Assembly: GCA_964035575.1 (NCBI GenBank)
Contig: OZ037835.1
Coordinates: 1,240,001-1,304,000 of the forward strand
From: Rhynchopus sp. YZ270_cl-10
Lineage: Eukaryota
Length of the DNA stretch: 64,000 nucleotides
Direction: 5' to 3'
The notes under the pieces were generated by a model. That model was given only the letters and a program-made list of their open reading frames with translations. It was not told the DNA's origin and did not search any database. The position numbers were made by a program, and so were the translations under genes. Shown here one piece after another: positions 4,659 through 44,216 of this stretch (the stretch's first letter is position 1; the number at the start of each line of letters is the position of its first letter).

Positions 4659-6305
4659 ATGGACCTGAACATCAAGGGTTTCGACACGAATCAGCACACA
4701 GTCGAGGTGGGTGCAGATGACACAGTGGAGGGCTTGCGGCGGAAGGTGGCGTCTGCAATGGGGTTGCCCGAAGACGGCTTTTGCATGAGTTTCGGAGACG
4801 AAGCGCTGGGAGAAGGAGCGGACATGACGCAGCTGAGTGCTGGTGACACAATCATCCTCACGAAGACGCAGAAGTACCAAGCCATTGCAGAGCTTCATGC
4901 GTTGGGTGAGACAGACCTGACCGCCGAGAGGTTGGAGAGTCACGGGCGTACGGGATTAGTATCTTTTTTTCGAGAGAACCCAAGAGCGGCCAGGTCCTGG
5001 ACAAGTACGTTGTGCTTTTAGACCTACAAACTGTCTGGGGTGGTGGGACCTCGGGGCGAAGGGTGCTTCCCGGGACCCCAATATCCTACCACAAGGAGCT
5101 CGAGTCGTGCATGGAATGCAGGGTACTCTGAGCCGATCACTTCCACAACTCCCAGATCCCAAGACCTCCACGGGGGGCAGGCCTCCACGGAAACCCGCGA
5201 CCGCCGACACCTTAGCTCCGTACTGCCTCTGTCTGTAACCTGCCGGTCCCCCACCTACCTACGCTTTTTGTGGTGTCTTTTTACGACGGTGGACCAAGGG
5301 GCTTTGCAGTGCAGTCAACGCCGACGGAGCGAGACTCGATTGTGACCGGGTGAAAAGGGAACCTTAGCCAGCGCTAACCAGCGGCAGTTTTGACTCAGGG
5401 AGGAGTTTCTCACCGCAGACTGGCGACACACCCCCACTTTTTCGGGGTGGCTGCATTCCTCTTCGGAACGGGGTGTTCCATCCTATTTTTAAAAACGTTT
5501 ATCCGCCGAGAGGTTGAAGAGTGTGGAGGATCCTGAGGTGGCGTGTTTGCTTCTGCAGGCGGAGGTTGCGACTGTCATTCCGATTGGGTTCTTGTCAAGC
5601 ACTTCGTTGACGAGACTTGATCTCAGTGCTGAGTCCATTGTGACTCACATTGGAGACAGCTTCCTGGAAGGCTGCACCTTGTTGACAAGTGTCGACCTCT
5701 CTGGGTTGAGCAATGTGACGCAGGTTGGTTCGTGGTTCCTTCAGAGCTGCATCAGTTTAACGACCCTGGATATATCTGCACTCAGCAACGTGACGCTGAT
5801 TTATGGCGGCTTTCTTTTCGGATGCAAGAGCTTAACCAACGTCCATTTATCTCCACTCAGCAACCTGACGCACGTTGGTGCGCACTTCCTTCAGGAATGC
5901 ATCTGCTTAACGACCCTGGATTTATATCCACTCAGCAATGTGACGTCGATTTTGAAGAACTTTCTTTCCGGCTGCAGCAGCTTAACAACTCTGGATTTGT
6001 TACCACTCAGCAACGTGACGCAGGTTGGTGTGGGCTTCCTTCAGAGATGCATCAGTTTAACGACCATCGATTTATCTCCACTCAGCAAGGTGACGCATGT
6101 TAGTAGTAGCGCTTTTGGAGGTACGTATTTTGCTGCGAAATGCACTTCGTTGACGAGCATTTACCTTTCCGGCTGCAGCAGTGTTGTGTCCAACGAAGTG
6201 AGGAACGACCAGAAGCTGAGGAAGCTTGTGGTTGAAGCACGTCCGAAACGAAGCAGAGACGAATCCCCCGAGCAAAGCCAGAAGCGACGGAGACACGCAC
6301 AATGA
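4659..6305 (+). CDS. Ubl-LRR subfamily A protein, ~354 aa; predicted exons 4659-4930 and 5513-6305
   Basis: Both halves are open and match 1661-2497. Removing GT..AG 4931-5512 restores ...TAERLKSVEDP... in frame. Has 3 more LRR units than the 1661 copy. Confidence 0.75.
4941..5502 (+). mobile_element. Short non-autonomous retroposon family 1 (SINE/SIDER-like), lacking its first 40 nt
   Basis: 20-bp TSD CCGCCGAGAGGTTG(G/A)AGAGT at 4921-4940 and 5503-5522; near-identical to 28110-28671; no convincing ORF. Confidence 0.85.
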
Positions 6306-19520: not shown

Positions 19521-20368
19521 GTAATCCATGTGAATATCTATCTAAAAAAGGAAGAGTTTCATTTTTTTAAAATCCTTGGTCACAATATACGCGAGCTTTC
19601 CTGCAGTCAACGCAGGGAAAGCATAATCAACGATGTGATACAGGATATGGGTGGTTCAGTGATTCCACAGAACCGACACCTTTGGTGTGTCTCAACCAAA
19701 GGCCAAATAATTTAAAAAGAGAGAATATTTGAAGTAAACGAAGAATAAGAAAGTGTCACCTACCCTTTTCATGACAACATCCTCCCCGCCCAACCCCCAA
19801 CTCCCAACATACCCGGGGCTTGGTGTTGCGAAGTGCGACGTGAATGCCCCATCACTCTCCGCTTTGAGCTTTCCCAGATTCACAGCAACTGCTCTGGTGC
19901 GGACAGCCTGCACCTTCGATGTAGTGACAGCAAAGCGAAGGCGTTGTGCGTATGATATGTGCTCATACAAGGCTTTCGAGATCGCATTCTTGTTTGTTCC
20001 GTTGTTGCGTTGTGTTGAGGATGATATTGGTCTTATGAACTCCCGTCTTCCCACAGTTTGTTGGCAAGGTTCTTGAAAAGGACTGCAGGCTTGTTGTCCT
20101 CCACACCCCACCACAACACACAGAGATCAGAACACAAAACCACAACAAAGACATGGACCTGAACATCAAGGGTTTCGACACGAATCAGCACACAGTCGAG
20201 GTGGGTGAAGATGACACAGTGGAGGGCTTGCGGCGGAAGGTGGCGTCTGCAATGGGGTTGCTTGAAGACGGCTTTTGCATGAGTTTCGGAGACGAAGCGC
20301 TGGGAGAAGGAGCGGACATGACGCAGCTGAGTGCTGGTGACACAATCATCCTCACGAAGACGCAGAAG

Positions 20369-20456
20369 GAGGGTGAAAGACAGCGCGCCGCCACGTGGTA
20401 CCCTCGGGGGGCGGCCCCCTCCGCCTTGGGGGGAGTCGCCTGCGAAAGCGCAAGTC
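20369..20456 (+). ncRNA. HDV-like self-cleaving ribozyme (predicted) at the LINE 5' end
   Basis: P1 GAGGGT/ACCCTC, P2 GAC-a-GCGC/GCGC-aa-GTC, P3 GCC/GGT, L3 GCCACGT, P1.1 CC/GG, P4 GGGCGGC../..GTCGCCT, J4/2 GCGAAA with candidate catalytic C20443. Starts exactly at the TSD boundary. Confidence 0.75.
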
Positions 20457-20486
20457 GGGCGGTCGCCAGGGAGCAATTCTGGTGCG

Positions 20487-22880
20487 ATGTGTGGAGGAGC
20501 AGTCGGGGTGGACGGGAACGGGGTCGGGGAGAAGGAGGTACTGGCGGAATACCTCAAGCAGTTTGAGCTGCGGATGAAGGAAGCCGGGGGGGCCGGAGAC
20601 TGCCAATTCAAGGCGGTCTCCATGGCAATGCACGGAGAGGCGACAGCGCACGTTGGGTTGAGGGCGATGTGTGTCGCTGAGCTGAGGAAGAGCGTGGGGG
20701 ACTGGACGGCGTTCGTGCAGGGTAGCTACCAAAGCTACTGCACCGCTATGGCGAAGCAGGGCACCTGGGGGGACCACCTCACCCTACAGGCGATGGCGTG
20801 CATGCTCGAAAAAGACATGCAGGTGTTCTCGGTACGCGACGAGAAAGTCCGAGTACTGAAGCTGCAGTCGGCAGGAGAGGGAAGGCGGGGGGCGGCAATA
20901 TCACTGGCATACCTCGGGGGGTGTCACTACATGTGCATACATGCCAGTGACAAGGGGGAGCTGTCGCTGGAGGAGCGAGCACGGAGGGCGATGTCCGGGG
21001 GGGCTCTGGAGTCGGAAGACGCGGAGTGGATGGTGCCGCAACCGAAATGCGTGGCAGATGGAGGATTCGCTCAAGGCGGAGCAAAGAAGAAGGCAACAGG
21101 GACGCTCACTCTGCTGCGGTCGTCATGGGTAGGGAAGGAACTGGTGTCGTGGGGGGAGGTAGGGGAAAGGTCCGCAGGGGTCTGCCTCGTACCGCCGGGC
21201 AAGGAGGCAGAGGCGGAGCAGAAGATACCACGCAGCCCAGGTGTGACGTGGGTGGGATTCGCCCCCTTCCCGAGATCAGGGGGGGTGAAGGTGCAGCAGT
21301 GTGCAATGGGAAGGGAAGGGAATGGGGGGGTATTTTTGGGAGCGACGAACACCACCGTCTATGTGGTGGGTGATGCCAGGCCAGGGAAGGATGGAGGGGG
21401 GAAGCGTGCAGCGGCGGTCCTGCGGATGGCGGAGATACACGTGGCGATGCGGAACGTGCAGGACCTCGCGTCGTCGGGGAGGTGCATGCGCGCTGCGGTG
21501 GAGAAGTGGGGAGGTAACCTGCGCGGCGATCCTGTCGTGCATGAGAAGTTGGTGCTCGGCAAGGCGGACGTTCGTGGCTGGGGCGCCTGGGGGGGTTGGA
21601 GTGCACCCGCATTCGCATCCGCATCCGCAGCCACGTCCACGCCCACTCCACCGCCGCATCCGCAGGCACATCCACCTCGGGCACAGCAGAAGAGGCCTAC
21701 ACCTGCGACGACGACATCACCCACACCGTCGGTCCCCACACCAGCAGCCGCACCGCAGGACGCTTCCCACCACCAGAAATGGGAGGAGCTGGAGCGTCGC
21801 ATGGGCGAAAGAGTGGACCGCCTGGTGGGAGAGCGCCTGCAGTCGCTGCTGAAGGAGACGGTGTCGTCAGTGACGGAGATGACGGCGCAGATACGGAAGG
21901 AGCAGGCAGAGCAGAGGAAGGACCAGCAGGCCTTCATGGATGGTGTCATGAGGCTGCTGACAAAAGCGGATACGACGCAACCAGCGTCGGACGCCGGTGT
22001 TGAACGGATGGAGGAGACGGTGCCCGCTAACCTGGCTGGCAAGAGAGACACCCGGAGTGGGTCTAGCGGCAGACAGAGCCCTCGCCGTAAGATGAAGATA
22101 GCGGAGCCGACACCCCCCGCCGCCTCTACCAATGTTGAGCAGCAGGGAACCGATAACGCCACCAATGACGAGGTGGGGGTGGGTGAAGATCCCGTTCTGC
22201 CGGATGGTGTCTCCGAACAAGCAGATGAAGCGTCAGACGCCGGTGATGTGCAGATGGAGGAGACGATGCCCGCTAACCTGGCTGGCAAGAGGGACACCCG
22301 GAGTGGGTCAAGCGGCATCCAGAGCCAAAGCCCGCGTCGCAGGAGGAAGGTAGAAGAGACGACAGCCCCCGCCGCCTCTACCAATGTTGAGGAGCAGGCA
22401 GACGCCATCGGTGCTGATGTGGTGGGGATGGGTGAAGAAGCCGTTCTGCCGGAGTGTGTCTCCCCAACCAGCAACGAGGACGGAGAAATGGCAAGTGCGA
22501 TGTCCTCCCCTGCACCCGTGCCGTTGTCACCCCCCTCCGATGCGATGGAAGCTGATGAGGTGGAGATCCCCCCCCCCGTCAGCATGGCAGGCAAGAGGGA
22601 CACCCGCAGCGGATCCAGTGGGATTGCACAGCTGAGCCCTCGGCGCCGTGCGAGGATTGACCTGCCCGCGCCCCAGTCCCGGACCCGGTCGCAATCACTC
22701 CCAGTGGAGTCAGAGTGGCTGCAGGAAGGCGATCTGATGGTCTACTGCGTAGACCAAATGCGGTTTGATGTGGTGGTGGTGAAGATGACCGTCGAGGGTG
22801 TGGAGATCGCGTTTGGTCCTCTCCAAGGACACCCAAACCGGACGGTACCGCGCAGCTGCTTGTTTGGCAGGACGAAGTGA
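20487..22880 (+). CDS. LINE ORF1 with N-terminal OTU-like cysteine protease, ~797 aa
   Basis: GAGDCQFKAVS...YC..M.KQGTWGDHLTLQA...LAYLGGCHY is the OTU pattern with Cys and His. Also a coiled coil and three internal repeats of AGKRDTRSGSSG..SPRR. Confidence 0.8.
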   Translation: MCGGAVGVDGNGVGEKEVLAEYLKQFELRMKEAGGAGDCQFKAVSMAMHGEATAHVGLRAMCVAELRKSVGDWTAFVQGSYQSYCTAMAKQGTWGDHLTLQAMACMLEKDMQVFSVRDEKVRVLKLQSAGEGRRGAAISLAYLGGCHYMCIHASDKGELSLEERARRAMSGGALESEDAEWMVPQPKCVADGGFAQGGAKKKATGTLTLLRSSWVGKELVSWGEVGERSAGVCLVPPGKEAEAEQKIPRSPGVTWVGFAPFPRSGGVKVQQCAMGREGNGGVFLGATNTTVYVVGDARPGKDGGGKRAAAVLRMAEIHVAMRNVQDLASSGRCMRAAVEKWGGNLRGDPVVHEKLVLGKADVRGWGAWGGWSAPAFASASAATSTPTPPPHPQAHPPRAQQKRPTPATTTSPTPSVPTPAAAPQDASHHQKWEELERRMGERVDRLVGERLQSLLKETVSSVTEMTAQIRKEQAEQRKDQQAFMDGVMRLLTKADTTQPASDAGVERMEETVPANLAGKRDTRSGSSGRQSPRRKMKIAEPTPPAASTNVEQQGTDNATNDEVGVGEDPVLPDGVSEQADEASDAGDVQMEETMPANLAGKRDTRSGSSGIQSQSPRRRRKVEETTAPAASTNVEEQADAIGADVVGMGEEAVLPECVSPTSNEDGEMASAMSSPAPVPLSPPSDAMEADEVEIPPPVSMAGKRDTRSGSSGIAQLSPRRRARIDLPAPQSRTRSQSLPVESEWLQEGDLMVYCVDQMRFDVVVVKMTVEGVEIAFGPLQGHPNRTVPRSCLFGRTK

Positions 22881-22892
22881 CGGGATGGTGTG

Positions 22893-25800
22893 ATGGTTGG
22901 CACAGGATTCGCTTCTTCGTGCGACGTTGGTGAAGGAGACGTTTTCTTCAAAACGGCCTCCCCAACAAGGGGTCAGCATCGTCCGCGTTCTACGGGCTGT
23001 ATGCTGTTGGGGGTACTGGGTAAGGGTGGTGGTGTTAGACGAAAGGTACGGCGAGGAGAGCGACGAGGGGTACGGCGAGGGGTGCGTCGAGGGGTACGAC
23101 AAGGGACGTGTCGAAGGGTGCGACGTGGGGCGTTCTTGGGTAGGGGGTCACTGCTGACATGTGGGGACGTAGAGGAGCATCCGGGTCCGTCGACCATGTC
23201 GCTTGGCACGGCAAACGTGACGTCTCTGAGGGCACACCCTGCGGTGGGGGAGTGGGATGTGGACGTTTGTGCTCTGCAGGAGGTGCGGCTCACAGAAGAA
23301 GAGATGAAGGGGGCAGCAAACGACGTAAAGGGGTATGGTGCCAAGCAGCTTCTCTTTGGTGCCCCTTGCAGACGAAGCCAGGGTTCAGACCCTCTGCGCA
23401 CGCGCACGCAGAATGGTGGAGTTGCGATCATGACGTGCGCTGACATACCGACCAGAGCAGTACCGCCACAATGTGCCCAACAAGCGTGGAACGAATGCCG
23501 CTTTACGCATGCGCAGGTGGCATATGGGAGCGGGGGACGCAACATCTCTGTGTTCTCGTTTTATGGTGTGTGTGCTGACAGCGACCGCACGGAACAGCTC
23601 CTAACAGACATTTTTGAAGAAGCAGCCAGCCTTGGGGACATACCGGTGTTCATTGCCGGAGACTTCAACGTAGAGGCTAACGAAAGTCTGGCCATTCGTG
23701 CGGCCATCTCCTCCGGCAAATGGGTTGATGCGGCAGATACCTACGCACAGCAGTTGGGTAAGGCAGCAGAGAACACATGCTACACCTCCACATCGTCTGG
23801 CAGACGTATCGACTTGGTGCTGGCGAACCACGTGGCTGCCCCTGCGATCTCCAAAGTGGTGGTCTGGAAAGAGAGCTGCCTCCCGGTACACAGACCGGTG
23901 GTGTTGACGTTAGACCTGACGCGGTACGAGCAGAAGGCACCGCAGGCACGCCCTCCCCTTTCTTTGATCGGCGACGACTGGACGAAATGGCCGGCAAAGA
24001 AGGAGAAGGAACTTGCAGCGAAGGTGATGCAGGAGAACGCTGCCCCTGAAGCTGACCTGACGAAGATGTCGGTTGAAGATCGCTGGGCACGCTTCTGCAA
24101 GATTGCGGAGGACTACCTGCTGAAGAGAGGTGCTGCAGACTCAGACCCGAAGCAACAACGCCACAGGGGGAGAGGGGAGGTGCAACCCGACGTTCTCCGA
24201 CATCGGACGGCCCGCATGGACTGCGACACGCCGGATGCTGTGAACCTGGAGCTCAACTGCAGAAGACATGTCGTCAGATGGAGCAGCTCATTGGTGATCG
24301 GAGGAAGCGCTTCGGTCAGCCATCTGCAGAATCGTTGAACGAACGGCAGCTGTGGGCGAAAATCCGCAAGAAGAAGCATCTACTGAAGAATGACACCTGG
24401 GACCTCGACCTTCCTGGGATAGAGGCGTTGTGTGGGCTCCTTGGCTGCCTGAAGAAGAGGGGTTTTGTCCTGCTGGAGCAACGGCGACGGGCCCGCATCA
24501 AGGAATGGCGCCGCACTATGAAGGAACACATGAAGGAGAACCCAGCGAAGGTGTTCTCGTTCCTGCGGAAGGCTACGTCGTCACACACCACGTTCCTGAA
24601 ACGGGAGGACGGCACGGTTACAGCTAACCTCCAGGAGATGGATGAACTGCTCATGGATGACCGTGCTTGGGGTGGGGTGTTCCGGATGTACGACGATTCC
24701 GAAGAACCTGCGTGGACGACGTTCTTTGATAGGTTCAAGGAACACATTCCTGAAGGGACCCCTTGTGTATGCGAACCCCTGACCGCCGACGACCTCCGTA
24801 CGACCATCGGCAAGATGAAGCGGAAAAAGGCGGCAGGCCTCGATGGGTGGAGGGTGGAGGAGCTGAAGGAACTGCCTTTGACACTGCTGGAGGAACTCGC
24901 GCGCTGCCTGAACCTGATCGAGGATACTGGGAACTGGCCCAGGGTGATTGCGAGGGCGTTGGTGGTGCTCATCCCCAAAGGAGAAGGCGAGGAGCCCCTG
25001 AAGCAGCGACCCATAACCATCACCAGTGTGATGTACAGGTTATGGGCGGCGACTCGACTCCGCAAAGTGGCGACGTGGCAGGAATCCTGGATTCACGAGC
25101 GGCAACACGGCTTCCGGAACAAACACGGAACCGAAGACCTGCTGTGGTTTCTCTGTGCGAAGATGGAGGAGGCTCTGATAGACGACACACCTGTCTATCT
25201 AGCCTCCTTCGACTATCAGAAGTGCTTTGACCGTGTTCCCCAAGAGATCATGTTCCAGCTCGTCGAACGGTTGGGTCTTCCCGACAACATGATGCGCCCC
25301 ATCCGGGGTATATACAAGAAGCTGGGGAGGCGTTTCAAACTTCCGGCAGGTCTTGGCAAAGAATGGTTTGCGACGAATGGTATCCTCCAAGGATGCCCAC
25401 TGAGCGTAATCTTCCTGAATGCGCTGGTGGCGGTGTGGATGAACGGGGTGGAGAAGGAAACGGGCACGCAGGGGCTGGCGTATGCTGACGACACCAACCT
25501 CCTGACGAAGACCCTCGACCAGCTGCGAGCGGGTGTCGCCTTCACCGGACACTTTGCAGACTTGACGGGACAACGCGTCCACGCGGGGAAGAGCACGTGG
25601 CAGAGCAACCGTCCTGATGAAGAGGAAACTGTGCAGATGAACGGCGCGGATCTTACTCGCGTCGAGAAGTCGGAGTGCCTGGGGGCGACGGTGCAGGCCC
25701 GACAGGCTGGGACGCCCACGCTCCCGACGAAGTTGGAAGACACCATCGACGCATGTGGACCGCTAGCAGGTAAGGTGGGATGTCTCCCGCTGACTCAAGG

Positions 25801-27916
25801 TGAGAAAGCAGGCATCATGCAGGCTGCAGTGATGTCGAAATCTGTGTACGGTATCACGGTGCAGGACCCACCTGGGAAATACGTGAACAGTCTTGCAACT
25901 GCAGTGGAGAAAGGGGTCCACGGCGTGAACAAGATGAACCGAAGAAGCGTACCGGTCATGCTGAATGTCTTCGAGAAAGGCCATCTGCTCGACCCCTCGG
26001 TGGCATTCGACTACAGAAGGATCATGACGTGGGCGGCGATGATACGCAAATCGGATGAGATCTGTTTGCTGGTCGAAAAGTGCAGGTCACGTGCGAAAGC
26101 GAAGCAGGCGAAGACTGGAGGACCCATCGGGTTGATTGCGCGAGCCCTCAGCCGCCTTGCGTGGTCATGGATAGACACGACAAAAGTGAAAACGCACGAT
26201 GGGAGCATCGTTGATGTGAAGACGGTAAGCTTGGGTAGACTGGGCCACGTTGTGCGAGAACGGATGTTCTTCATTCGACTCTCCCGTACGAAGACGACTG
26301 CGAAGGTCAATGGCAAAGGCAGAGCTAACCTGAAGGGTATTGAAGCGGGGGTGGATAAGGAGAAAACCCTTGCTCTCACCCGAAGCAAAACTTTGACGGA
26401 TTACGAGGCGGGGACGCTACGACACATTGTAGCTGACGGTGCGATAACGGGGGTGCGACTTGCGAGAGCGCGCATACGGGACTCGGCCATCTGCGTTCAC
26501 TGCGAAGCGGGGGTGGACGAAAACCATAAACACTTGTGGTGGGAATGTGAAGCATGGAGTAGCATTCGTGCGGAGTACCCCTTGCTGTTGGACATTGACA
26601 GAACGACCTGGCCAAACTGTCTCGCTATCTGTGGCATGTGCACACCGGACACACCTTTGGACTGCGCCCGTGTTGCAGACCTGCAGAAGATGATGGTGCG
26701 CATCCTCATCGCACGCTCCAAGTGGAGCAGACCGGAAGCGGCGAACCCGCGACTGCAAGAAGACCGATACCCGTGGACGTGGGCGCCGGAGTTGGACACG
26801 ACGACGCAACACGCGAACAGTTTGGTGGACTACACCCCCCTGAAAAGGAGGTGGCCGTATGGACGTGCTCTGCTGCTGGCGTTTGCCTCCTGGCTGGGTG
26901 GTTTACAGTGGAGCGACGAAGCTGGACGTGAAGTCTCCCACATGGAGCTGCTCATCGACTTCGAGGTTGCCACAGGGATGGACATCCGACCTGGGGACAA
27001 GACCGGCAGAATAGCGCCGAAGCTGAAGCAGCCGAGGGTTGGGACTGGGGAAGAAGACAACAATGGGGGGGAAGACGACGGGAGTGGGGAAGACGACGAT
27101 GATGACGACGTGGTGCCAGTAGCGCTGGCCCACAGAGAAATGGCGAAGACGACCACCTTTGGGCATATGTTGGCTTCACTCAGAACCTTTTCGGAGAGCT
27201 CTCTCCATCCGGGGAAGGTGAAGGTAACGCATGTTCTCGCTTCGTTTGGGGCGAACGCCATCACAGGCATCGACCGCCGTCCTATTTTTGCCGGCGGAGA
27301 AGAGACGTTGAAGGCATTGCGTGCGCTATACGATGCTGGTGTGGCGTACCGTCTGCAACGCAGCTCCGAAGGCATGTCTGAGGTGGAGCTCCGTGGTGGC
27401 GATAGAGCGAGAGGTACATGGATGGGGGAGTATTCTGCTGAGACGGCGTACCCCTCCACAGAAGTTAGGGGCAGGAGGGCACTACCATTCATCCAGCGGG
27501 CTGAACAGGAGACATCTGCGCATGCTCGCTACCGACACCATGAGCACGTGCGTCCAGGGGACGCACCCGTGAAGGCACCTGAAGGAGCGGTTCCGATCTT
27601 CCAGTTTGCGATATGTGTGCTGCACCGGAAGACGAAGTGTGATGCCTGCTCGAAGAACGCCCAGGCAGACCTGATGCATTGCTGCTTTGCGCACCACTCC
27701 GACGACGACGGGTTACCGATCCGACACGAAGCATGCACTAAGCATAGACTCTCGAGGTGCGGGAACTGTGTGCAAGAGAAGAGTACGCTGGATCACTGCT
27801 GCCGCCGCCACCACGACACCTCGAAGGGGCGACAGACGACGCTGGGAGGCTTCTTCAAGAAGAAGCAGACGAAGCAGAAGGATGGGCACAGCAGGGGCGG
27901 TGATGGACTTATGTAA
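22893..27916 (+). CDS. LINE ORF2: 2A-like peptide, AP endonuclease, reverse transcriptase, CCHC finger, C-terminal Cys/His domain; one frameshift near 24250
   Basis: APE motifs TANV, ALQEV, AGDFN, RIDLVL, PVHRPV. RT motifs KAAGLDG, QHGFR, DYQKCFD, GILQGCPLS, YADD. Zinc finger CVHC..ENHKHLWWEC. Confidence 0.9.
23139..23189 (+). other. 2A-like (StopGo) peptide GRGSLLTCGDVEEHPGP
   Basis: Differs from T2A GRGSLLTCGDVEENPGP only by N>H; lies immediately before the APE domain. Confidence 0.9.
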
Positions 27917-28069
27917 CATCACCTCCACGATGTATTGTATCACCTATCTCGGATAGGGGTGCATGCATCGAAAACGGACCCCCACCTCACGAAGACGCAG
28001 AAGTACCAAGCCATTGCAGAGCTTCATGCGTTGGGTGAGACAGACCTGACCGCCAAGAGGTTGGAGAGT

Positions 28070-28671
28070 CCCGACGGCGGACCGCCCCCCATAGCACATT
28101 TTTGCGGTGCACGGGCGTACGGGATTAGTATCTTTTTTTTGAGAGAACCCAAGAGCGGCCAGGTCCTGGACAAGTACATTGTGCTTTTAGACCTACAAAC
28201 TGTCTGGGGTGGTGGGACCTCGGGGCGAAGGGTGCTTCCCGGGACCCCAATATCCTACCACAAGGAGCTCGAGTCGTGCATGGAATGCAGGGTACTCTGA
28301 GCCGATCACTTCCACAACTCCCAGATCCCAAGACCTCCACGGGGGGCAGGCCTCCACGGCAACCCGCGACCGCCGACACCTTAGCTCCGTACTGCCTCTG
28401 TCTGTAACCTGCCGGTCCCCCACCTACCTACGCTTTTTGTGGTGTCTTTTTACGACGGTGGACCAAGGGGCTTTGCAGTGCAGTCAACGCCGACGGAGCG
28501 AGACTCGATTGTGACCGGGTGAAAGGGGAACCTTAGCCAGCGCTAACCAGCGGCAGTTTTGACTCAGGGAGGAGTTTCTCACCGCAGACTGGCGACACAC
28601 CCCCACTTTTTCGGGGTGGCTGCATTCCTCTTCGGAACGGGGTGTTCCATCCTATTTTTAAAAACGTTTAT
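28070..28671 (+). mobile_element. Short retroposon family 1, full length (602 bp)
   Basis: 19-bp TSD with 2 mismatches at 28051-28069 and 28672-28690; same site as 4941-5502; 5' end can fold HDV-like. Confidence 0.85.
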
Positions 28672-28863
28672 CGCCGAGAGGTTGAAGAGTGTGGAGGATC
28701 CTGAGGTGGCGTGTTTGCTTCTGCAGGCGGAGGTTGCGACTGTCATTCCGAATGGGTTCTTGTCAAGCACTTCGTTGACGAGACTTGATCTCAGTGCTGA
28801 GTCCATTGTGACTCACATTGGAGACAGCTTCCTGGAAGGCTGCACCTCGTTGACAAGTATCGA

Positions 28864-29465
28864 GGGGACAAAAACGTGAGGTGGCAGCCCCCCGGCATTT
28901 TTGCCCTGGCGTCCCCGGATATAATCTCTTGTTTGAGTGAACGAAGGCCACGCGTGGGATGGTTGCATTGCACTTTTGCAAACCCGGGCACATGATACTG
29001 GAGGGTCCAAAGCAACTGGAGGAGGTGTATGCTGGGCTTTTTGTGCCCTCAGGGATTTAAGCGACCCTGCACCTACTTTACGACCATGCACAGCTTTTGC
29101 TTTTCTTTTCTTTGCTTTTTGTAGGTGCTAACCTGCGGCAGTGGTTTGCATCAGTTGGGTGTTCCACTCACCGCAGTTTAGAGAATTAGGAGATGCCAGT
29201 CATTCGTTCCTCCCATTGGAATGACTGGTGGTTTTATTGTTGTTTATTTCTTTTGACGCTGCCAGAGTGCGGACCTTGAACTGGCTTATATACTAACCTA
29301 GGCCACCAGCGGTGGTATACGGCCCCTGTTCACTTAGGTGTCGCTTCTTTGTTGGGTATAAGTCAGCAAATGGGATCAAGCCACTCTCTGGCACACCGTG
29401 ATGCCATCCTTCCCTTTTGCTGGTTTTTCTTTTTGCGGGGGTGGATCACGTTTTTCAAGTTTATT
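28864..29465 (+). mobile_element. Short retroposon family 2 (602 bp)
   Basis: Perfect 18-bp TSD CTCGTTGACAAGTATCGA at 28846-28863 and 29466-29483; non-coding; 5' end can fold HDV-like. Confidence 0.85.
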
Positions 29466-31995
29466 CTCGTTGACAAGTATCGACCTCTCTGGGTTGAGAA
29501 ATGTGACGCAGGTTGGTGCGTGGTTCCTTCACACCTGCATCAACTTAACGACCCTGGATTTATCTGCACTCAGCAATGTGACGCAGGTTGGTCAAGGCTT
29601 TCTTTTCGGATGCAAGAGCTTGACAACCCTAGATATATCTCCACTCAGAGATGTGACGCAGGTTGGTGCGGGTTTCCTTTGGATCTGCAGCAGCCTAACA
29701 ACCCTGGATTTATCTCCACTCAGCAACGTGACGTATATTAGTAGCGCTTTTGGAGGTACGCATTTTGCTGCGGACTGCACTTCGTTGACGAGCATTTACC
29801 TTTCCGGCTGCAGCAGCGTTGTGTCCAACGAAGTGAGGAAGGGCGATCTGAGGAAGCTTGTGGTTGAAGCACGTCCGAAACGAAGCAGAGACGAATCCCC
29901 CGAGCAAAGCCAGAAGCGACGGAGACACGCACAATGACGACGTGGTGTGTTGGTGGGAGGGCAGCACCTCCCCGAGGTGGAGGGTCTCTGGCAGTATGTC
30001 TGCTGCGTCCTCTGGTTCGGAGAAGAAGAGGGGCACAGTCTTGCTCACCGTGGCACAGACTACTACTTGGTGCGAGAGGAGAGCTGTGCTGAGCAAGACG
30101 TTCCACACATTGTGTTATGTTACGCGGTGCTGCAAAATAATTCCCACAACTCATGTCTTATTCATTACAACGTACCTCCCCACCCAATCCCCCTTTTTTC
30201 TGCAATTCATCACTCTGAACTCGTTGACACCACGTGGTCGTTCACTGTCTTCTTGGTAGCTTGCACGAAGAGGTGTGAGGTGTGAGGGGAGGCGAGTGGC
30301 TTCCGTTGTGTGCTCTGATGTACTGATTGCGTGCTTTCACTTGATGGTGTGACTGGGGGGACTCAGGGGGGAGGACGCGCTTTGCTGAGCTTGGGGGGCT
30401 TGTGTGGAAACCTTTTGCAGTGAACGGCTGTCCTTGGGTGGGAGGTGGAGGTGCACAGTGTTGTGAATGTGGATGGGTGTGGGTGTGGCGCTTCCCTTCA
30501 TCGTTTGTGGTGATGATGGGAGGGGAAGCTGTGGCCGGCCGTGGGGTGCTTTCGTGCAATTTGTCTGGCACCTCAGCTTGTCTGTGGTTGCAGCACGAGA
30601 GCACCTTTGGCGTTCTTCCTTGCGTGGGGTGGGTGGAGACAGCGGAGTGTCCCATGGGAGGCACTGCATCTTGCAGCAGGGCTGGGATGGCGGCACTCAG
30701 GTGCGTGATGGGGTTGGGTTTTGAAGTGATGGGGTAGGGGGAAGTGGACAACACTGTGTGATGTGAAGGCTGCGCTTAATACAAGCAGGCCTGTACAGCA
30801 GCACAGTTTTCATGGGTGCAAAAAGGTAGTAGGATTGGTTGGGTTGGGTTTGCCTGCAAGTGGGTGGGATGGTTTTGTGGCGATGATGGCTTTGTGGTTT
30901 GTGTCTGCTGCAGTGCATCTTTCATGGGTGCTAGCATCATATTGGTTGTAGTCTTGGCGTTGGGATGGTTTTACAACCCTGTGCAAGGTGGTGAACGTTG
31001 CACAGACCTGTGCAGCATGCAAGGAACCTAGCGCCTTGATGATATCACCACAGTGTTCCTTCAAAACTCCACACAACGCTTTTGGTTTTTGGGAGACACA
31101 CAAGGTGCGAGGTTCTATGATATGCACGGAACCACTCTGCACCCTAGTTATAATACATGGAGAAACGTTTCGCACCCGAAACTGGGGCTGCACTTCATTT
31201 GCACTTTTTGTGTACTTTATGTACGTAATACAGTGGTGTGTGAAATAGGACGTGCCATGCCAAAATAAAAAGGGGTAAAACGTACAGAGGGAACCCTGTT
31301 CAGGGGAAGGGGAGAAACATTATTTTGGTGTACGAATTGCAGGGAATTCGGTTGGGGGTGGGCAACAAAAAGCCAACAGACACTATAGGTGTCGGGTACA
31401 ACAAAGTCGGGACACAGTAGGGAGGGGTGTGGGCAAGGGTAGATGGCCACTCTCAAAACAGCTGTCAGGGATGGGATGGGAAGGAGGGGGGTCGCTTCGC
31501 TCAGGTAGTGTTGTGCCACCATTTCTTATGCAACTTTCAACCGGGTTCACATCGCAGTTGGAAAGGTTGGTGGGGTAGGATGCAATTGTAAAGGCAAACG
31601 CATTCTGCATCCTTTGTATGGCAGAGTCCTGCTCGTAGTCCTTCTGAGCATCCAGGGAAGACGAGGTCCCCTCCCAACTTTCTTCGTCGCTGAATTTGGT
31701 TGATTCGCAACACTTCATGACTTTCCATTTTAAAAAAAAACATTGGAAAAATAAAGCCAATGCAGGTGAAGCCCCCCAGCGTCTTCACAGCCCATCTCGC
31801 CTTTTTGGCGTAGACACGTTATGCAGAAGAACCCAGGTGGCAACCGCATGCCTACTGCACGTATGGTCGCAGGTTGAAGTGGGATGCGTTGTGCTGTGTG
31901 CTTCATGGGGGGACAGGGAGCAGGCCTCTGGGTAATTTTTCGGCCGATGTTGGCCTTGGGGGGTGGGTGGTACCCCCCCCCCCCCCCCCCCCCCC

Positions 31996-35404: not shown

Positions 35405-36980
35405 TAGGGGCCGCAGTCCCCTAAGGAAATTATGTAACAATAATTATTTCGTCATTTTTTGGGCATCTAGTGGGCACCTCAGGGTGTGTCTGACACCCAA
35501 AATAGGTTTCCGGGGCAGTGTGACCCAGAATTTCATGGTTTGGCACCTCAGAAAGTGAAAAAAGTGTGAAAAAATAGGATTTTCAGCCTTTTTGGCCATT
35601 TGGGGCAAAATGGCCAATTTTGGCACATTTTTTGCTTTGTGGGGGTATTTGGGGCTATTTCACCCCCAAAACCACTCAGAACATGTTCTAGGCACCTATT
35701 TTCAACCACAATTACCCATACAGGGGGGTATTCCGCTCAAGAAATGGTTTTGTTGGGGTTATTTTCAGCAAATTTTCACTAAGTTTCACTAAGTTTTGCT
35801 AAGTTTCACTAAGTTTTACTAAGTTTCACTAAGTTTTGGTCAAAAAAAATGCAAAAAAAATGCAAAAAACACGAAAAATTGCACAAAAAATGGGAGGAAC
35901 CGAACAAATATGTATGGTATGGCAAAAATGTGTCCTTTTTTTTGGGTGACTGATTACCAGAAACACAAAAAAAATGGAAAATAAAGCACAAATCGGCCAT
36001 TTGGGCCATTTTGGGACAAATGACCATTTTTGACCAAATTTTCAAAAAAAATTGTAAAATTTCGACATCATGACAGCTGCTTGGACACAAAACTACCCCA
36101 GGGATGTCCCGTGAGTCTATTCCGACCTGTTTTGGACACTTTAGGTACTTTTTTTGGCCGCTTTTTGGTGTTTTGAGGTCAAAATGACCCCTGTCTACCC
36201 CCTGTCCAGGGGTCATATTCGACTCAATATTTCAAACCAAGATCGGTTCGAGGGGCCCAAAAGGGTGCAGCTCGTCGAAATCAGGCCCACAGGACCCCCT
36301 GGAGTATGATTTCCACAGGAGAGTGACCCCAAGAGGCCTCTGACGGCCCTAATTTGGCATTTTTTAGCCCAAAAACCGCCCCTGCCCCCCTCTCTGGGGG
36401 GGAGGGCAATTTTTCACTCATTTTCCCCATTTCTAGTGCTTCTAAGTCCTCCAATGGGTAAAAAAACGGTTCCGTTGGGTCCGCAGACCATTTTTTGGGG
36501 GGGTATGTACCAAAATTTGCACCATACCCTACTTTATGTGATGGCCAGGGGAAAAATCCTGGCCTTGGACAGGGGGTAGACAGGGGGTGGACAGGGGGTC
36601 TTTTTTTCCAAATTTTGGCCAAATTCACCAAAGAAAAGGCGTAAAAATGTGAAAAACAGGCGAGAATGGACTCCAAGCACGTTTTTGGGGCAAAATAGGT
36701 CTCAAATGACTCTCTGAAACATCGAATTTGGTGTTTTTTTCATGTTTTTTCATGAAAAATCGGGGTTTTGGCCGAAATGGCCAAAACCCCCAAAAAGCCA
36801 GTTTTTTGCTATTTTTTCCCATTTTTTCACATTCTAGAGTCGAATTTTCACCCAATTTTGCCTCACAGGGTGTTTCTGACCTATTCTGGGGTGGTTCTCT
36901 GCAGGTTGTGGCCACTATACGCCAAAAAGTGGCAAAATGAATTATTGTTACATAATTTCCTTAGGGGACTGCGGCCCCTA
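35405..36980. mobile_element. TAGG..CCTA TIR element (non-autonomous)
   Basis: ~40-bp TIR TAGGGGCCGCAGTCCCCTAAGGAAATTATGTAACAATAATT; internal blocks shared with neighbouring elements. Confidence 0.85.
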
Positions 36981-37006
36981 GGGGGGGGGGGGCCCCCCCC
37001 CCCCCA

Positions 37007-37396
37007 CCTCTGTACACAGTTATACAGGGGGTGGGCCGAAGAAAAATTTTTCCGACCAATTTTTGCCCACAAAAAATCGAAAAAAAAAAATTTTTTTTTC
37101 GATTCTCCTGTGTCTGTGCGTGCTGTGATGGGGTCATTTCGCGCTCAGAAATGAGTATTTTTGACCCAAAATACATGTGTCAGTTTTTACACGATTTTTG
37201 AAATTTTCAGTCCAAAACTGACACATGTATTTTGGGTCAAAAATACTCATTTCTGAGCGCGAAATGACCCCATCACAGCACGCACAGACACAGGAGAATC
37301 GAAAAAAAATTTTTTTTTTTTCGTTTTTTTGTGGGCAAAAATTGGTTGGAAAAATTTTTCGGCCCAGCCCCTGCAGCATGTATAACCGTGTACAGA

Positions 37397-37398
<2 letters not shown>
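37007..37398. mobile_element. Foldback MITE, ~180-bp inverted arms
   Basis: ~37007-37188 is the reverse complement of ~37214-37398. Confidence 0.85.
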
Positions 37399-37422
<24 letters not shown>

Positions 37423-37427
<5 letters not shown>

Positions 37428-40412
37428 TTGTAAAAAGACAGGGTCCTGGCAAAAAAGACCAAAAAAGACCATAAAAGACCAAAAAAGGCCAAAAAAGACC
37501 ATAAAAGACACAAAAAAGACACAAAAAAGACATAGAGGGACTCTACCTTGCAGAAAAAAAAGCACTCCACGCGTTTTGAACACAAATCGCAGGTTTTCCT
37601 AAAGCTGAATCTAAATTCTGAAACTAAAACTAAAACTAAAAATGGTGGCTTTTTCCTTTTGACTCCGTGGTTAACCTCGTGTGAGGTTGCGCGGAGTTCG
37701 CAGTCAGGCCAGGGAGCCACGTAACAAGGCTCGACTGCCACATAGTGGGGGGAGATCTGTGCAGCCTGTATGTTCCCCCCGATTTTCGTGGTAAATGGGG
37801 AGGCGCTTCCGTTTAACGGCAACCCACAAGAGTAGAACAACAACCAAACTTTTGAGAAACAGACGCCAATGAGACCTAGAGTCTCTCTTCTTACTTGTGT
37901 GCTACAGACAAACATGACAACGCTAACCACGACTGCCACGGCAGAGCGGGGTCCCAAACGGTTCACTGGGGGGGATCCACATAGATACAGAAAACAAAAA
38001 ATACGAAAGCAAGGAAGAAAACCAGTAAAAAAAAAAAAAAAAATGGAAAACCTTTCACCACTCAACCGACTCTTCATCTTCATCGCTGTCGTTTCCTTCA
38101 GCAGGAGCTGCCTCGACTTCAGGAGCTTCTGCTTCTGCTTCTGCGTCGCAGTCAATCACAGGTTCTCCTGGTTTGGCACCCTCGATTTCAAACCAGGAGT
38201 CACCTTTGCCAGTGCGGAGGCAACTGTGAATCTGCGTCAGCTTCGTCACTCGCGCCGAGAGGAGTCGATTCCTCCGCAACTGCGACATCCAGCCCATTGT
38301 GCTGAATTGCCGTTCGAGTTCGGCACTCGAGGCTCGGATCCCCGACACTCTGTACCCAATCCTGCAGAGCTTCACGTCTTTCTCGCTCCCTCCATCGCTC
38401 TGCACCTCCAGCAAGAATATCCTCCACCACTCCTCTGGTGTCTTGGTCTTCGCAAGATCCCACATCCCGTCATTTGCAAAAATGCCGGATGCAGTGCGAA
38501 ACTCGATCAGACACGCCGACAGTGCCGCGCCCCCCAGTTTTTTGAGGTAGGCAGAGGCGTTCTTCTTCACCTCTGCACACGGAGCCCAACCTGCCAGTTT
38601 GGTCAGCGGGTGTTTTGCTGGCAGGTCCTTTGCTTCTTTGTACACCTGTGTGATTGTTGTTGTTGTTGTTGTTGGGATCAATATGGCTGAAGTATACCTG
38701 AAAAAATGGGTTGAGAAGAGTCGCAGCGGAGAAAACACCGTCCTCGTGAGTGATGTAGCGAGAAACACGCACTTGGATTTTTTTAATAACGTTCTCCATT
38801 TTCTGTTTGTCTTCCACCGTTGCCAAAGCTGCCTTCGTCTCTTTTGCTGCACTCAGAGCTTGCTCAAGAAGCGGAATCACAAACCCAATCCTACACGAAT
38901 CCGACTGCAACAAGTTGACCACAACACCAGCCTTCTCCACAAATTTGTGAATCGCGCGAATCAGAGGCATGCTGTTGCAGACTTTAAGAATATCTGGGCA
39001 GCGGGCGAGTGCTTCCTCATCATCGGCAACAAGCAACAGAGCCTCTCGGTATTGCGCGACGAAGTCGAACAGCTTTGACGTTGTAGTCCATCTGGTAATC
39101 GCCATAAGCTTTGGCGCGTTCGTTCGCTGACTCAGTTCAGTCTGTTTTTCCTTCAAAACAGCCCTGAGGTAGTCAACATTCTTCAGAGACGCTACAACGC
39201 TGTTCAGCAACTTTGTCACGTAGTTGAATTCCTGTCCCGTTTCGTTGCCTTTGGATTTCTTGGTCCCGAGACAGTCATTCACCATGCGTTGTACAGTATG
39301 GGCAGCGCAGACAATGGTGTGCACGTCAATGTTCTTTTTTTTTAGTTCGGCTTTGAAGAGTTTGTTTGCCTTGGTAGCTGTCGTATCTCCATCTGAAATG
39401 AGTGCAACAGCTTTTTTTTGAAATTTTTCTGGTGTTTGCGTGAGGTGTGAAAGAAGCTCCTGCGCGTTGTGTTGTTTTTGTTGTAAGATCCCGCTGTTCA
39501 CGATCAATCCTGCCTGCTCCCCTGCTGTTCCGGCGCACGCAAAAACTTTTTCTGCTCGCGAATTTTTCCAGGTGTCCGACTGGAGGGAGATGTGCTCGTT
39601 TTTTGCGAGCTTATCAAACTTCGGAACACAGATGGTGGTGTGCACCTTGTCCAGCAAAGTTGTGGAGATGACGTGTCGGCTGGGTATGTGTTCTTTTTTT
39701 AGCCCTGGTCTCGTTGCCATCATGGCCTCAATAAAAAGTGGACTATCGACTACCGAGAAGGGCACCCCTGCGGCGAACACGAACTTCGCCCAGGCGAGAT
39801 GCATCTCCTCGATCTCCTTCGCGTTCGGTGCAGGGATGCAGGGGATGCGGGTTTGGCTCTTTTCGAGCTTCGCCCTCTTTGCAGCAGGCGCTTCAGCCGG
39901 TGCCGTCGTGTCGGAGCGGGATCTTTTCGCCCGCTCTTCTTCCTCTTCGATCCTCTGTTTCGCCCTGTCACTCTTCTTCGGGCAGTCCTCCACGATGTGC
40001 TTCTTCATCCGTGTGGCTGAAATGCCGTTCTTCGCCAACCTGTACCCGCAGCCCTCCCCCTTGCACTCGAGGTAGTCAACCTCGTTCTCCGTCACCTCCA
40101 CGTACTCCTCGCGGCTCCAGCAGCTCTTCCTCCCTGGCATTTTATTATTATTCCCCTGATTAGTCTGTGTTGATACTCTGTAAGTGTGGGTGTTTGTGAT
40201 GTTTGCGGGATCCCTTTTCAGCTCAGCTCCATGGGCTCATAAGCACCATAACCCCAAAAACGTGCGCTCAAAAAAGACCAAAAAAGACCGAAAATGCTGG
40301 CAAAAAAGACCAAAAAAGACCGAAAATGCTGGCAAAAAAGACCAAAAAAGACCAAAAAAGACCAAAAAAGACACATCAAAAAAGACACAAAAAAGACACT
40401 GCCACAACACTG
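37423..40412 (-). mobile_element. Autonomous hAT DNA transposon
   Basis: TIR CAGTGTTGT/ACAACACTG, flanked by G runs; AAAAAAGACC subterminal repeats at both ends; encodes a transposase. Confidence 0.9.
38055..40140 (-). CDS. hAT transposase, ~677 aa; exons 40140-38698 and 38645-38055
   Basis: BED finger (C..EGC...MKKHIVEDC), SDTW, ISDG, CAAH, RW, ATLLNP and ASSAELERQFS motifs. A 52-nt phase-0 GT-AG intron (38697-38646) joins the two overlapping ORFs. Confidence 0.9.
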
Positions 40413-40422
40413 GGGGGGGGGG

Positions 40423-41611
40423 TAGGTGGGGGCAAAACCCCTATTTTTTTGAGGCATTTTGACTTTTTTGGACTTCCGCGCAAAGTACGTACAAACCACC
40501 CCTCATACCCACCCAGAAATGGGTCAGAAACACCCTGTGACCCGAAAATCCATGCTAAGGGCGACTCAGAATATGAAAAAATGCAAAAAAATAGTGAAAA
40601 AGTGGCCTTTTGACGGTTTTGGCCATGTTGGGTAAAATGGCCATTTTTGGACAAAAAAATCAAAAAAACAGCAAAATTTCGACGTCATGACAGCTGCTTG
40701 GGCACAAACCTACCCCAGGGAGGTCCTGTGAGTCCATTCCGACCTGTTTTGGACACTTTAGGTACTTTTTTTGGCCGTTTTTTGGTGTTTTTAGGTCAAA
40801 AAATACCCTGGACTTTACCCTGGACGTCCTGGGCCGCGACTTGCGCCCTGCTTTTGGACCCACTCTGGGCCAAAAAATGGGTGAAAACCCCCGAAAAAGC
40901 ACTCCGGGAACCCAGATAGTTCCAAATATCCACCAGAAACCCACCCAAACACCTCAAAAACATGCCAGAAAAATATTTTTAAAAACACACTTTTTCAAAT
41001 AAGTCATTATGGAACCTGCCCAGATGAACTTTTTGAAAAAAGTGTGTTTTTGAAAATATTTTTCTGGCATGTTTTTGAGGTGTTTGGGTGGGTTTCTGGT
41101 GGATATTTGGAACTATCTGGGTTCCCGGAGTGCTTTTTCGGGGGTTTTCACCCATTTTTTGGCCCAGAGTGGGTCCAAAAGCAGGGCGCAAGTCGCGGCC
41201 CAGGGACGTCCAGGGTAAAGTCCAGGGTATTTTTTGACCTAAAAACACCAAAAAACGGCCAAAAAAAGTACCTAAAGTGTCCAAAACAGGTCGGAATGGA
41301 CTCACAGGACCTCCCTGGGGTAGGTTTGTGCCCAAGCAGCTGTCATGACGTCGAAATTTTGCTGTTTTTTTGATTTTTTTGTCCAAAAATGGCCATTTTA
41401 CCCAACATGGCCAAAACCGTCAAAAGGCCACTTTTTCACTATTTTTTTGCATTTTTTCATATTCTGAGTCGCCCTTAGCATGGATTTTCGGGTCACAGGG
41501 TGTTTCTGACCCATTTCTGGGTGGGTATGAGGGGTGGTTTGTGGGTACTTTGCGCGGAAGTCCAAAAAAGTCAAAATGCCTCACCCGTCCTGAAGGTTTT
41601 GCCCCCACCTA
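40423..41611. mobile_element. Foldback element, ~540-bp inverted arms, TAGG..CCTA ends
   Basis: TIR TAGGTGGGGGCAAAACC; ~40452-40995 mirrored at ~41035-41583. Confidence 0.9.
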
Positions 41612-41626
41612 GGGGGGGGGGGGGGT

Positions 41627-43004
41627 TAGGGGGTCGCATTGTCCTCACAAAAAGTGAAATAAAATTTTTTTGTGACATAGATACTCGTTTCCCGTGGAAA
41701 ACTAGACACATACCCACCCCAAAAATGTTCGGAGGATCCAATGAAACCATTTTTTTACACTTTGGTGGGCTCAGAAATACCCAAAATGGGGAAAATTAGT
41801 GAAAAATGGACTTTTACCCCAAAATGGGCAAAAGTGGTTTTTTAGCAAAAAAATTGATTTTTTTGGATCACCAGAGGTCTATTTTGGTGACTCTCCGGTG
41901 CAAATCGGGTCCCAGGGGTCCTGTGGACCTGATTTCAACGACCAACAGGCTTCTGTACCACTTGCAAATGATTTTTTTTGAGTTTTTGAGTCAAAAAAAG
42001 TGCTTGTCCACCCCTTGTCCACCCCTTGTCCAGTCCAGGACTTTTCCCCTGGCCATCACATAAAGTAGGGTATGATGCAAATTTGGGTACATACCCCCCC
42101 CAAAAATGGTCTGCGGACCCAATGGAACCAGTTTTTTACCCTTTGGAGGACTTAGAAGCACTAGAAATGGGGAAAAGGAGTGAAAAATTGCCCTCCCCCC
42201 CAGATGGGGGGGCAGGGGCGGTTTTGGGCTAAAAAATGCCAATTTAGGGCCGCCAGAGGACTCTTGGGGTCACTCTCCTGTGGAAATCGTACTCCTGGGG
42301 GTCCTGTGGGCCTGATTTCGGCCAGCTGCACCCTTTTGGACCCTTCGAACCGATCTTGGTTTGAAATATTGAGTTGAACATGACCCCCTGAACCCGTGCG
42401 TATGCGCCTCAAACACCCCCCTCACCCCTCCCCCCTCACTGCCCACCTTCTCCTACCCTGCCAGGCGTAACAAATAAAAAAACGACCTCCCCCTCACAAA
42501 AAGCGTCTGAGGATGCTGCTGAGTTCGTGAGGAGGTTCGTGGATGGGGAGCAGATCAGGGGCGTGTGTATGGCGTGTCCTGATGAAGTGCTTCAGCTGGG
42601 GCTCGAAATGCACGGCTGTGGGGGGAGGCAGAAAATGCCAAATTAGGGATGCCAGAGGCCTCTTGGGGTCACTCTCCGGTGGAAATCGTACTCCTGGGGG
42701 TCCTGTGGGCCTGATTTCGACGAGCTGCACCCTTTTGGACCCTTCGAACCGATCTTGGTTTGAATTATTTAGTCAAATATGTCAAATTCCTCCAATCATA
42801 GGCTGTATACAGTACAAAATCATGAAAACACCAATAAAAACGCATTTTTTTTTACGTTTTTTCACGTTTTTTGCCGCAAAACCCCCCAAAAACCCCCGGA
42901 AACCCATTTTTGGGGTGGCACAGGGTGTGGGTCACCACTGAAATGGTCCACCAGCGAAAAAATAATAAAAATTACATAAAAACGTTAGCCAATGCGACCC
43001 TCTA
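41627..43004. mobile_element. TAGG..CTA TIR element (non-autonomous)
   Basis: TAGGGGGTCGCATTG / CAATGCGACCCTCTA; internal block is an inverted homologue of ~36220-36600. Confidence 0.75.
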
Positions 43005-43014
43005 GGGGGGGGGG

Positions 43015-44216
43015 TAGGGGATACGACTCCAGCCATTTTGGCTGGGACCAAACGCACGGAAAATTCATTTGGCATTATCTGGCCATCTCCAAGGCAACTG
43101 CGGGTGAAAAACACCCTCAGAGTGGGTCACAGGGGGCCTGTGGGTCGAAAAACGACCCAGAAGCCACCCCAGAATACAAAAAAATGGAAAAAAATAGTGA
43201 AAAAACGGCTTTTTTCACGTTTTGGCCACTTTGGGCAAAATAGCGATTTTTCGAGAAAAAAATCAAAAACCGGGATATTTTTTGACATCACAAAGCCTCC
43301 TTTGGCACAAATATACCCCAAAAGTGGCCTGTGAGTCCATTCCAACCTGTTTTGGACATATTTGACACTTTTGGAAGTGTTTTTTTGGTGTTTTTAGGTC
43401 AAAAAAATGCCCAAGACGTCCCCAAGACATCCCCAAGACACTTTGCACACCCCCTGTTACGGTCATATTTTTTTCGTTTTTTTGCCTGAAACCCCCAAAA
43501 TACCCCTCCCGGACCCCACATAGTCCCGAATATCCATCACACACCCACTCAGAGTGAGTAGAAGCACCCCAAAAAAAATATTTTTTAAAGCCCTTCAACT
43601 TCAACATGGATGCTGCCGAAACTGAAGCACAATTTTAGGGCTTTAAAAAATATTTTTTTTGGGGTGCTTCTACTCACTCTGAGTGGGTGTGTGATGGATA
43701 TTCGGGACTATGTGGGGTCCGGGAGGGGTATTTTGGGGGTTTCAGGCAAAAAAACGAAAAAAATATGACCGTAACAGGGGGTGTGCAAAGTGTCTTGGGG
43801 ATGTCTTGGGGACGTCTTGGGCATTTTTTTGACCTAAAAACACCAAAAAAACACTTCCAAAAGTGTCAAATATGTCCAAAACAGGTTGGAATGGACTCAC
43901 AGGCCACTTTTGGGGTATATTTGTGCCAAAGGAGGCTTTGTGATGTCAAAAAATATCCCGGTTTTTGATTTTTTTCTCGAAAAATCGCTATTTTGCCCAA
44001 AGTGGCCAAAACGTGAAAAAAGCCGTTTTTTCACTATTTTTTTCCATTTTTTTGTATTCTGGGGTGGCTTCTGGGTCGTTTTTCGACCCACAGGCCCCCT
44101 GTGACCCACTCTGAGGGTGTTTTTCACCCGCAGTTGCCTTGGAGATGGCCAGATAATGCCAAATGAATTTTCCGTGCGTTTGGTCCCAGCCAAAATGGCT
44201 GGAGTCGTATCCCCTA
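43015..44216. mobile_element. Foldback element with 580-bp inverted arms and a 42-nt spacer
   Basis: 43015-43594 is the reverse complement of 43637-44216; ends TAGGGGATACGACTCC. Confidence 0.92.

Follow-up and report, generated by a model that had tools for sequence, protein, structure and literature searches.

A likely HDV-type ribozyme fold with a variant core at the exact 5´ end of a Rhynchopus LINE

How does a LINE that interrupts a host gene come to have a precise 5´ end? For the element described here an initial annotation had proposed that an HDV-like ribozyme begins at its first base, which raises the questions whether the fold is present, whether it marks the 5´ end and whether it could cut. 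The window, i.e. the whole stretch of DNA analysed, comprises 64 kb (128 kb on both strands) and contains the element in the following surroundings:

20153..20368, + strand: host gene, 5´ part before the insertion, with the ubiquitin-like domain; the leucine-rich-repeat (LRR) part lies near 28700-29937
20350..20368, + strand: left copy of the target-site duplication (TSD), 19 bp, in the host ubiquitin-like/LRR gene at about codons 66-72
20369..27984, + strand: APE-type LINE, full-length (7616 bp), in the same orientation as the host gene and lacking a poly(A) tail
20487..22880, + strand: ORF1, 797 aa, OTU-like protease domain at the N-terminus (PF02338, E 2e-12)
22893..24338, + strand: first part of ORF2, 2A-like motif and APE-type endonuclease (PF03372, E 2e-11)
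24278..27916, + strand: second part of ORF2, reverse transcriptase (RT); a frameshift near 24250 divides ORF2 here
27928..27970, + strand: 3´ UTR hairpin, 19 bp, z -2.6, with 3 of 200 shuffles as good
27985..28003, + strand: right copy of the TSD, 19 bp, perfect match to 20350-68

With an APE endonuclease, a reverse transcriptase and a flanking TSD the element is an APE-type non-LTR retrotransposon. Two paralogs of the host gene retain the empty site (4856-4874 and 1858-1876) and continue straight into the sequence found at 28004. Because of the 19-bp TSD and these two empty sites both ends of the LINE are exact, and its first base (+1) is G20369. The 3´ terminus (27928-27984) is formed by the 19-bp hairpin and a short stretch of C, with neither a poly(A) nor a tandem tail, and the hairpin is a candidate recognition signal for the reverse transcriptase.

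The host gene encodes a ubiquitin-like and leucine-rich-repeat protein and belongs to a tandem multicopy family, an intact 278-aa member of which starts at 1661. Its 3´ half contains two stretches of ~600 bp (about 28070-28672 and 28862-29465) that are missing from the intact paralog and are either introns or small mobile elements; the paralog at 4659 also has the stretch 28070-28672, which is flanked by a near-direct repeat. Elsewhere in the window, long inverted repeats of MITE- or foldback-like appearance are clustered at 35968-44216 and 63465-64000, and the arms of those at 40423-41611, 43015-44216 and 36993-37412 are 89-98% alike.

According to the initial annotation, a nested double pseudoknot can be drawn in order from the first element base. 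We could confirm this: the five helices follow each other in the sequence in the order P1, P2, P3, P1.1 and P4, starting at the G20369 that is fixed by the TSD.

20369..20456, + strand: HDV-like ribozyme fold, predicted cut between 20368 and 20369; the core ends at 20451
20369-74 with 20400-05, + strand: P1, 6 Watson-Crick bp, G1-C, enclosing P3 and L3 (20369..20405)
20379-81 with 20454-56, + strand: P2 extension, 3 bp, beyond a 1x2 loop
20383-86 with 20448-51, + strand: P2 core, 4 G-C bp, from sequence pairing
20387-89 with 20397-99, + strand: P3, 3 bp (G.U, C-G, C-G), from sequence pairing
20390-96, + strand: L3, first base G; G20390 sits where the signature U of the reverse wobble belongs
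C20391, C20392 with G20407, G20406, + strand: P1.1, 2 bp, from sequence pairing
20409..20441, + strand: P4 hairpin, 13 bp, pairing drawn and modelled
20443..20447, + strand: J4/2 (C-G-A-A-A) with the predicted catalytic C20443, one A above the usual four bases

The cut-site pair is a G1-pyrimidine pair, P1.1 consists of C-G pairs, L3 has C and G at positions 5 and 6, and J4/2 opens with the catalytic C followed by R-R-A (C20443-G-A-A) and the extra A. P1 has 6 bp, or 7 if G20375.U20399 forms at the price of one P3 pair. The sequence agrees at 12 of the 13 positions that a published descriptor fixes (PMC6326823), the sole miss being the first base of L3, where G20390 stands instead of the U of the U.G reverse wobble although the partner G20395 is present. 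On visual inspection we discarded a P1.1 register with C20388-C20389, in which the conserved L3 G would be lost and L3 would again begin with G. Because the signature position fails, the fold is better regarded as a variant that would work like an HDV-like ribozyme than as a plain member of the family.

We consider it likely that the first 83-88 bases of the LINE form an HDV-type fold that would cut, though probably slowly, before G20369 and thereby free a unit-length RNA. This reading is favoured because the sole match to our own descriptor in the window (both strands, 128 kb) falls on the +1 base fixed by the TSD.

How well such a fold would cleave can be gauged from published ribozymes. Two oddities had been pointed out in the initial annotation, a P1 of 6 instead of 7 bp and the G at the start of L3, and both are indeed seen, but only the second can be taken as a real defect. 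A P1 of 6 or 7 bp is ordinary in R2 ribozymes (PMC3774820). By our analysis the L3 G, unlike the 6-bp P1, is a serious departure: the G.G mutant of the trans-acting antigenomic HDV ribozyme still cleaves, 470-fold slower, in a study that terms the U.G reverse wobble the family signature and describes G.G mutants as not found in nature (PMC3386971). The other weak points of the fold are the P2 core of 4 bp and the extra A in J4/2. One third of the R2 ribozymes are reported to carry P2 mismatches (PMC3774820), and theta ribozymes are described as tolerating a longer J4/2 (PMC10879173); in HDV, activity drops 3- to 7-fold when J4/2 has an additional unpaired A (PMC2175327), and a Leishmania ribozyme that combines a 3-bp P2 with a cut-site mismatch is barely active (PMC4035085). 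The fold retains the catalytic C, the equivalent of G25, the two P1.1 pairs and every helix, and the equivalent of G20395 is reported to matter for the catalytic metal (PMC13635239). The rate given for the human CPEB3 ribozyme is 0.012 per min (PMC13635239), and for a co-transcript in the nucleus even slow cleavage could be of use. On balance we rather expect useful cleavage by the 5´ fold of this LINE.

The alternative that survives best, although we think it unlikely, is that the fold is a decayed inherited ribozyme, that the precise 5´ end stems from an internal promoter located in the same bases, and that the fold has been kept for reasons at the DNA level or for translation. The loss of the signature U in both subfamilies, the short P2 and the extra A would fit such decay, as would the reported lack of in vitro activity in several trypanosomatid SIDER elements whose folds can be drawn well (PMC4035085). 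A promoter in this position would have a precedent in L1Tc, where promoter and ribozyme functions reside in the same bases, Pr77 (PMC4035085), and it would likewise yield uniform 5´ ends. However, decay is expected to break pairs, whereas here the helices and catalytic positions listed above are intact and the only core change between the two subfamilies preserves the cut-site pair.

That change was found in other copies. Comparing 20345-20480 with contigs of public sequencing runs, which may include the source of the window, gave 11 pieces from two studies. Five of the 11 begin exactly at 20369, and in four of these the upstream letters are unlike the host flank of the window; one flank is common to two runs, and the agreement between two contigs of run X1 is only 0.7. 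Since the flanks differ between contigs, the element begins with this G at no fewer than two additional insertion sites. The claim that the fold marks the 5´ end of the LINE thus stands, the predicted cut coinciding with the element start in the window as well as at these sites. Two pieces in run X3 represent a copy truncated at 20434, run X6 had no contig piece matching the region, and the 20368/20369 junction of the window itself is absent from the pieces. G20390 is present in the window and in all five pieces that cover L3 position 1, and in both subfamilies; judging from these sequences, the L3 G is a family trait rather than damage in the window copy.

Within 20369-20455 the sister subfamily has a single change, C20405T, which turns G1-C into the canonical G1.U wobble. 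It shows 8 differences in 20456-20579, 5 in 20550-20676 and 11 in 20647-20798, and the excess conservation of the core is weak (Fisher p 0.03-0.07 for three boundary choices); one of its changes, C20456A, breaks the outermost P2 pair. As to the covariation across copies that had been suggested as a check, the family shows a single one-sided change, C20405T, with the cut-site pair kept; a two-sided compensatory change was not seen within it.

Besides the core, the sequences on both sides of it are predicted to influence folding, the upstream side through the following segment:

20346..20353, + strand: host flank complementary to 20369-76, predicted P1 block at the window locus

In a nested partition-function model, which ignores pseudoknot energy, the probability of P1 is 0.97-1.0 without the flank and at most 0.04 with 39 nt of host flank, and in the same model seven pairs of the competing 8-bp helix 20346-53/20369-76 reach 0.93-0.99. 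Extension of the 3´ side to 20490 also refolds P1 (probability 0.03 in this nested model, again ignoring pseudoknot energy). Misfolding with upstream and downstream sequence would be in line with decay; a downstream attenuator has been described for the L1Tc ribozyme (PMC3185411). Because 14% of 300 shuffled flanks block P1 as badly, the block can be put down to bad luck of the landing site and not to design. Base -1 of the window copy is a G, reported as the slowest at this position in genomic HDV (PMC1874588), and owing to the insertion the host ORF runs into a stop at 20566. The further proposal of the initial annotation, that the ribozyme would cut the host mRNA, has therefore lost ground: with a flank predicted to out-compete P1, a G at -1 and a host ORF that is already broken, cutting of this mRNA is doubtful and would be of little consequence.

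Among distant relatives, L008 (28% ORF2 identity, in the same 100/100 RT clade) contains at its bases 56-92 the 5´ half of an HDV core, directly after an (AC)n run and at the likely element start. This half comprises a 5-bp P1 with G1.U, the same P3 as in the window, a canonical U-first L3 and P1.1; its P1 differs in sequence from that of the window but still pairs. When the first 300 bases of L008 were shuffled, a core as good occurred in 9 of 1000 cases; this test was applied to three loci. No clean 3´ half (P4, J4/2, P2) was found in L008. Retention of only half a core could reflect decay, and we take it as a hint of homology, not as proof. The full descriptor gave two matches in 16 distant related loci, both of which were judged to be chance, lying within coding regions and having long loops. 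A relaxed descriptor had no match in seven upstream regions, and a core-only scan gave four matches in 56.7 kb, of which only that in L008 is near a plausible 5´ end. In six of seven related loci no core was found upstream of the protein match; most of them are probably 5´-incomplete.

The window also contains a second, unrelated LINE-like frame of 2642 codons (55235-63163, + strand) with a reverse transcriptase (PF00078), a weak OTU match and a C-terminal tail that looks like a restriction-like endonuclease; from its motifs we take it to be CRE-like. No credible HDV-like fold was found upstream of it.

That the fold at 20369 is a chance match in GC-rich sequence appears very improbable. Our descriptor was written after seeing the sequence and accepts a P1 of 6 bp as well as any base at L3 position 1, so that its chance rates are somewhat flattering: 30 block-shuffled windows gave nine matches in total, a mean of 0.3 per window (128,000 strand positions), and none of 2000 local shuffles of 20269-20568 gave one. 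Yet the real match lies at the very base which the TSD fixes independently. In favour of chance, the nested folding energy is ordinary (z -0.48), and an Rfam covariance-model search of the window found no HDV-type family and one chance miRNA match; Rfam likewise gave no HDV-type match at 11 of 16 related loci or at the 5´ end of L008. An unremarkable nested folding energy and a missed Rfam match are common for pseudoknotted RNAs. The exact core pattern had no match in metagenome contigs, and 57 pattern matches in viral contigs included no relative.

Spliced-leader trans-splicing at the AG before G20369 is hardly credible as the origin of the 5´ end, since the host flank does end in AG (20367-68) but other flanks end in AA and no leader precedes the element at the window locus.

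If the fold is an active ribozyme, as we favour, the host polymerase would read through the element; co-transcription of genes in long groups has been proposed for diplonemids (PMC10161547). The fold would form co-transcriptionally, before 20457-90 can refold P1, with C20443 acting as general acid, Mg2+ held at G20395 and a G.G pair replacing the usual U.G. The cut RNA, with G1 first, would then be translated and reverse transcribed, so that full-length new copies begin at G1. The rate would depend on the flank: the target site of the window copy is predicted to block it to a large extent, whereas A-rich flanks elsewhere would not.

The proteins of the LINE give an indication of its relatives. 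ORF2 is unbroken in other copies, e.g. as a single 1664-aa ORF in P0079. In the family of the window LINE, P0079 included, the conserved N of the 2A-like motif (window positions about 23163-23189) is replaced by H, but the motif is canonical in the sister family P0086 and in P0005; a 2A-like motif before the endonuclease also occurs in five other clades (PMC3708506). The RT cluster of the window LINE has 34 members, and the closest named proteins are LINE polyproteins of Diplonema papillatum (39-48% identity), which makes a diplonemid-like protist the likely host. An RT tree of 36 of 37 rows (P0040 omitted), with no ingi reference among them, contains one 100/100 group in which 26 rows, i.e. 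the window LINE, Diplonema, Polarella and marine metagenome sequences, stand apart from animal LINE RTs and from the CRE-like element of the window. In this tree the LINE thus groups with Diplonema and other protist elements. Homolog searches with the window LINE returned no trypanosomatid proteins. The L1Tc/ingi clade is characterised by a single ORF with APE, RT and RNase H and by a poly(A) tail (PMC12278014, PMC3708506); unlike these elements, the window LINE carries its OTU domain in an ORF1 of its own, gave no match to RNase H and has no poly(A) tail.

A LINE encoding an OTU domain, which is of deubiquitinase type, has here inserted at the end of a ubiquitin-like domain, and OTU is also present in D. 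papillatum P0012. Because the flanks at other insertions are unrelated, this meeting is probably a coincidence. Eukaryotic LINE fragments of the same clade were also seen on contigs of prokaryotic MAGs (L011-L016), which is most simply explained by contamination.

Among known systems the fold resembles L1TcRz/Pr77, for which an HDV-like fold with a cut at +1 has been described in the 77-94 bases that open an APE-type LINE (PMC3185411, PMC4035085), as is predicted here. Sensitivity to the upstream flank and a downstream attenuator, both predicted for the window LINE, and, likely, a euglenozoan host with read-through transcription are further common traits; a 2A-like motif precedes the endonuclease in both, here with H for N. 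In contrast to L1TcRz/Pr77, it has a G start, a 2-bp P1.1 and G at L3 position 1, and the TSD has 19 bp compared with usually 12 in L1Tc (PMC6765202). With R2 it shares a 5´-terminal HDV-like ribozyme that would free the element from a host co-transcript, a P1 in the range of 6 or 7 bp and the tolerance of P2 mismatches reported there; R2, however, is rDNA-specific and has a restriction-like endonuclease and a long J1/2 (PMC3774820), whereas the window LINE has an APE endonuclease, a short J1/2, a P1 wholly inside the element and unrelated insertion sites. The helix order, the G1-pyrimidine pair, the two C-G pairs in P1.1, the C-G in L3 and the C-R-R-A in J4/2 are as described for genomic and antigenomic HDV and CPEB3 (PMC3386971, PMC6326823, PMC13635239). 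From these the window fold differs by G for the U of the U.G reverse wobble, an L3-P1.1 spacing one base shorter and a J4/2 one base longer. Diplonema papillatum P0005 and P0012 fall into the same RT clade (RT 48% and 39% identical); P0005 has the 2A-like motif, endonuclease and RT, P0012 the OTU domain.

LINEs headed by ribozymes are already known (PMC6765202), and the main text of the D. papillatum genome paper has no occurrence of the word 'ribozyme' (PMC10161547). Our literature search found no report of 5´ ribozymes in LINEs of diplonemids or related protists; a natural G.G core could already be on record. Such ribozymes have reportedly been found in further clades, e.g. RTE, in one of the studies Webb and Luptak 2011, Veeraraghavan 2011, Ruminski 2011 and Webb 2009. 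The finding thus appears to be a known principle (R2, L1Tc/ingi) in an apparently undescribed protist LINE lineage, with a variant core. Only tentatively do we suggest that a naturally active ribozyme with a G.G core is fixed in a recently mobile LINE family, and that such 5´ ribozymes are old and unrecorded across a broad clade of protist LINEs (diplonemids, dinoflagellates, marine metagenomes), separate from ingi and missed because motif searches require U.

With this fold the importance of the active-site U.G pair can be judged on a natural sequence. Good cleavage would mean that a position which ribozyme searches regard as invariant can vary, and that these searches undercount the family. 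It is also an example of a target site predicted to switch a ribozyme off, so that the landing site would decide whether a copy spreads further.
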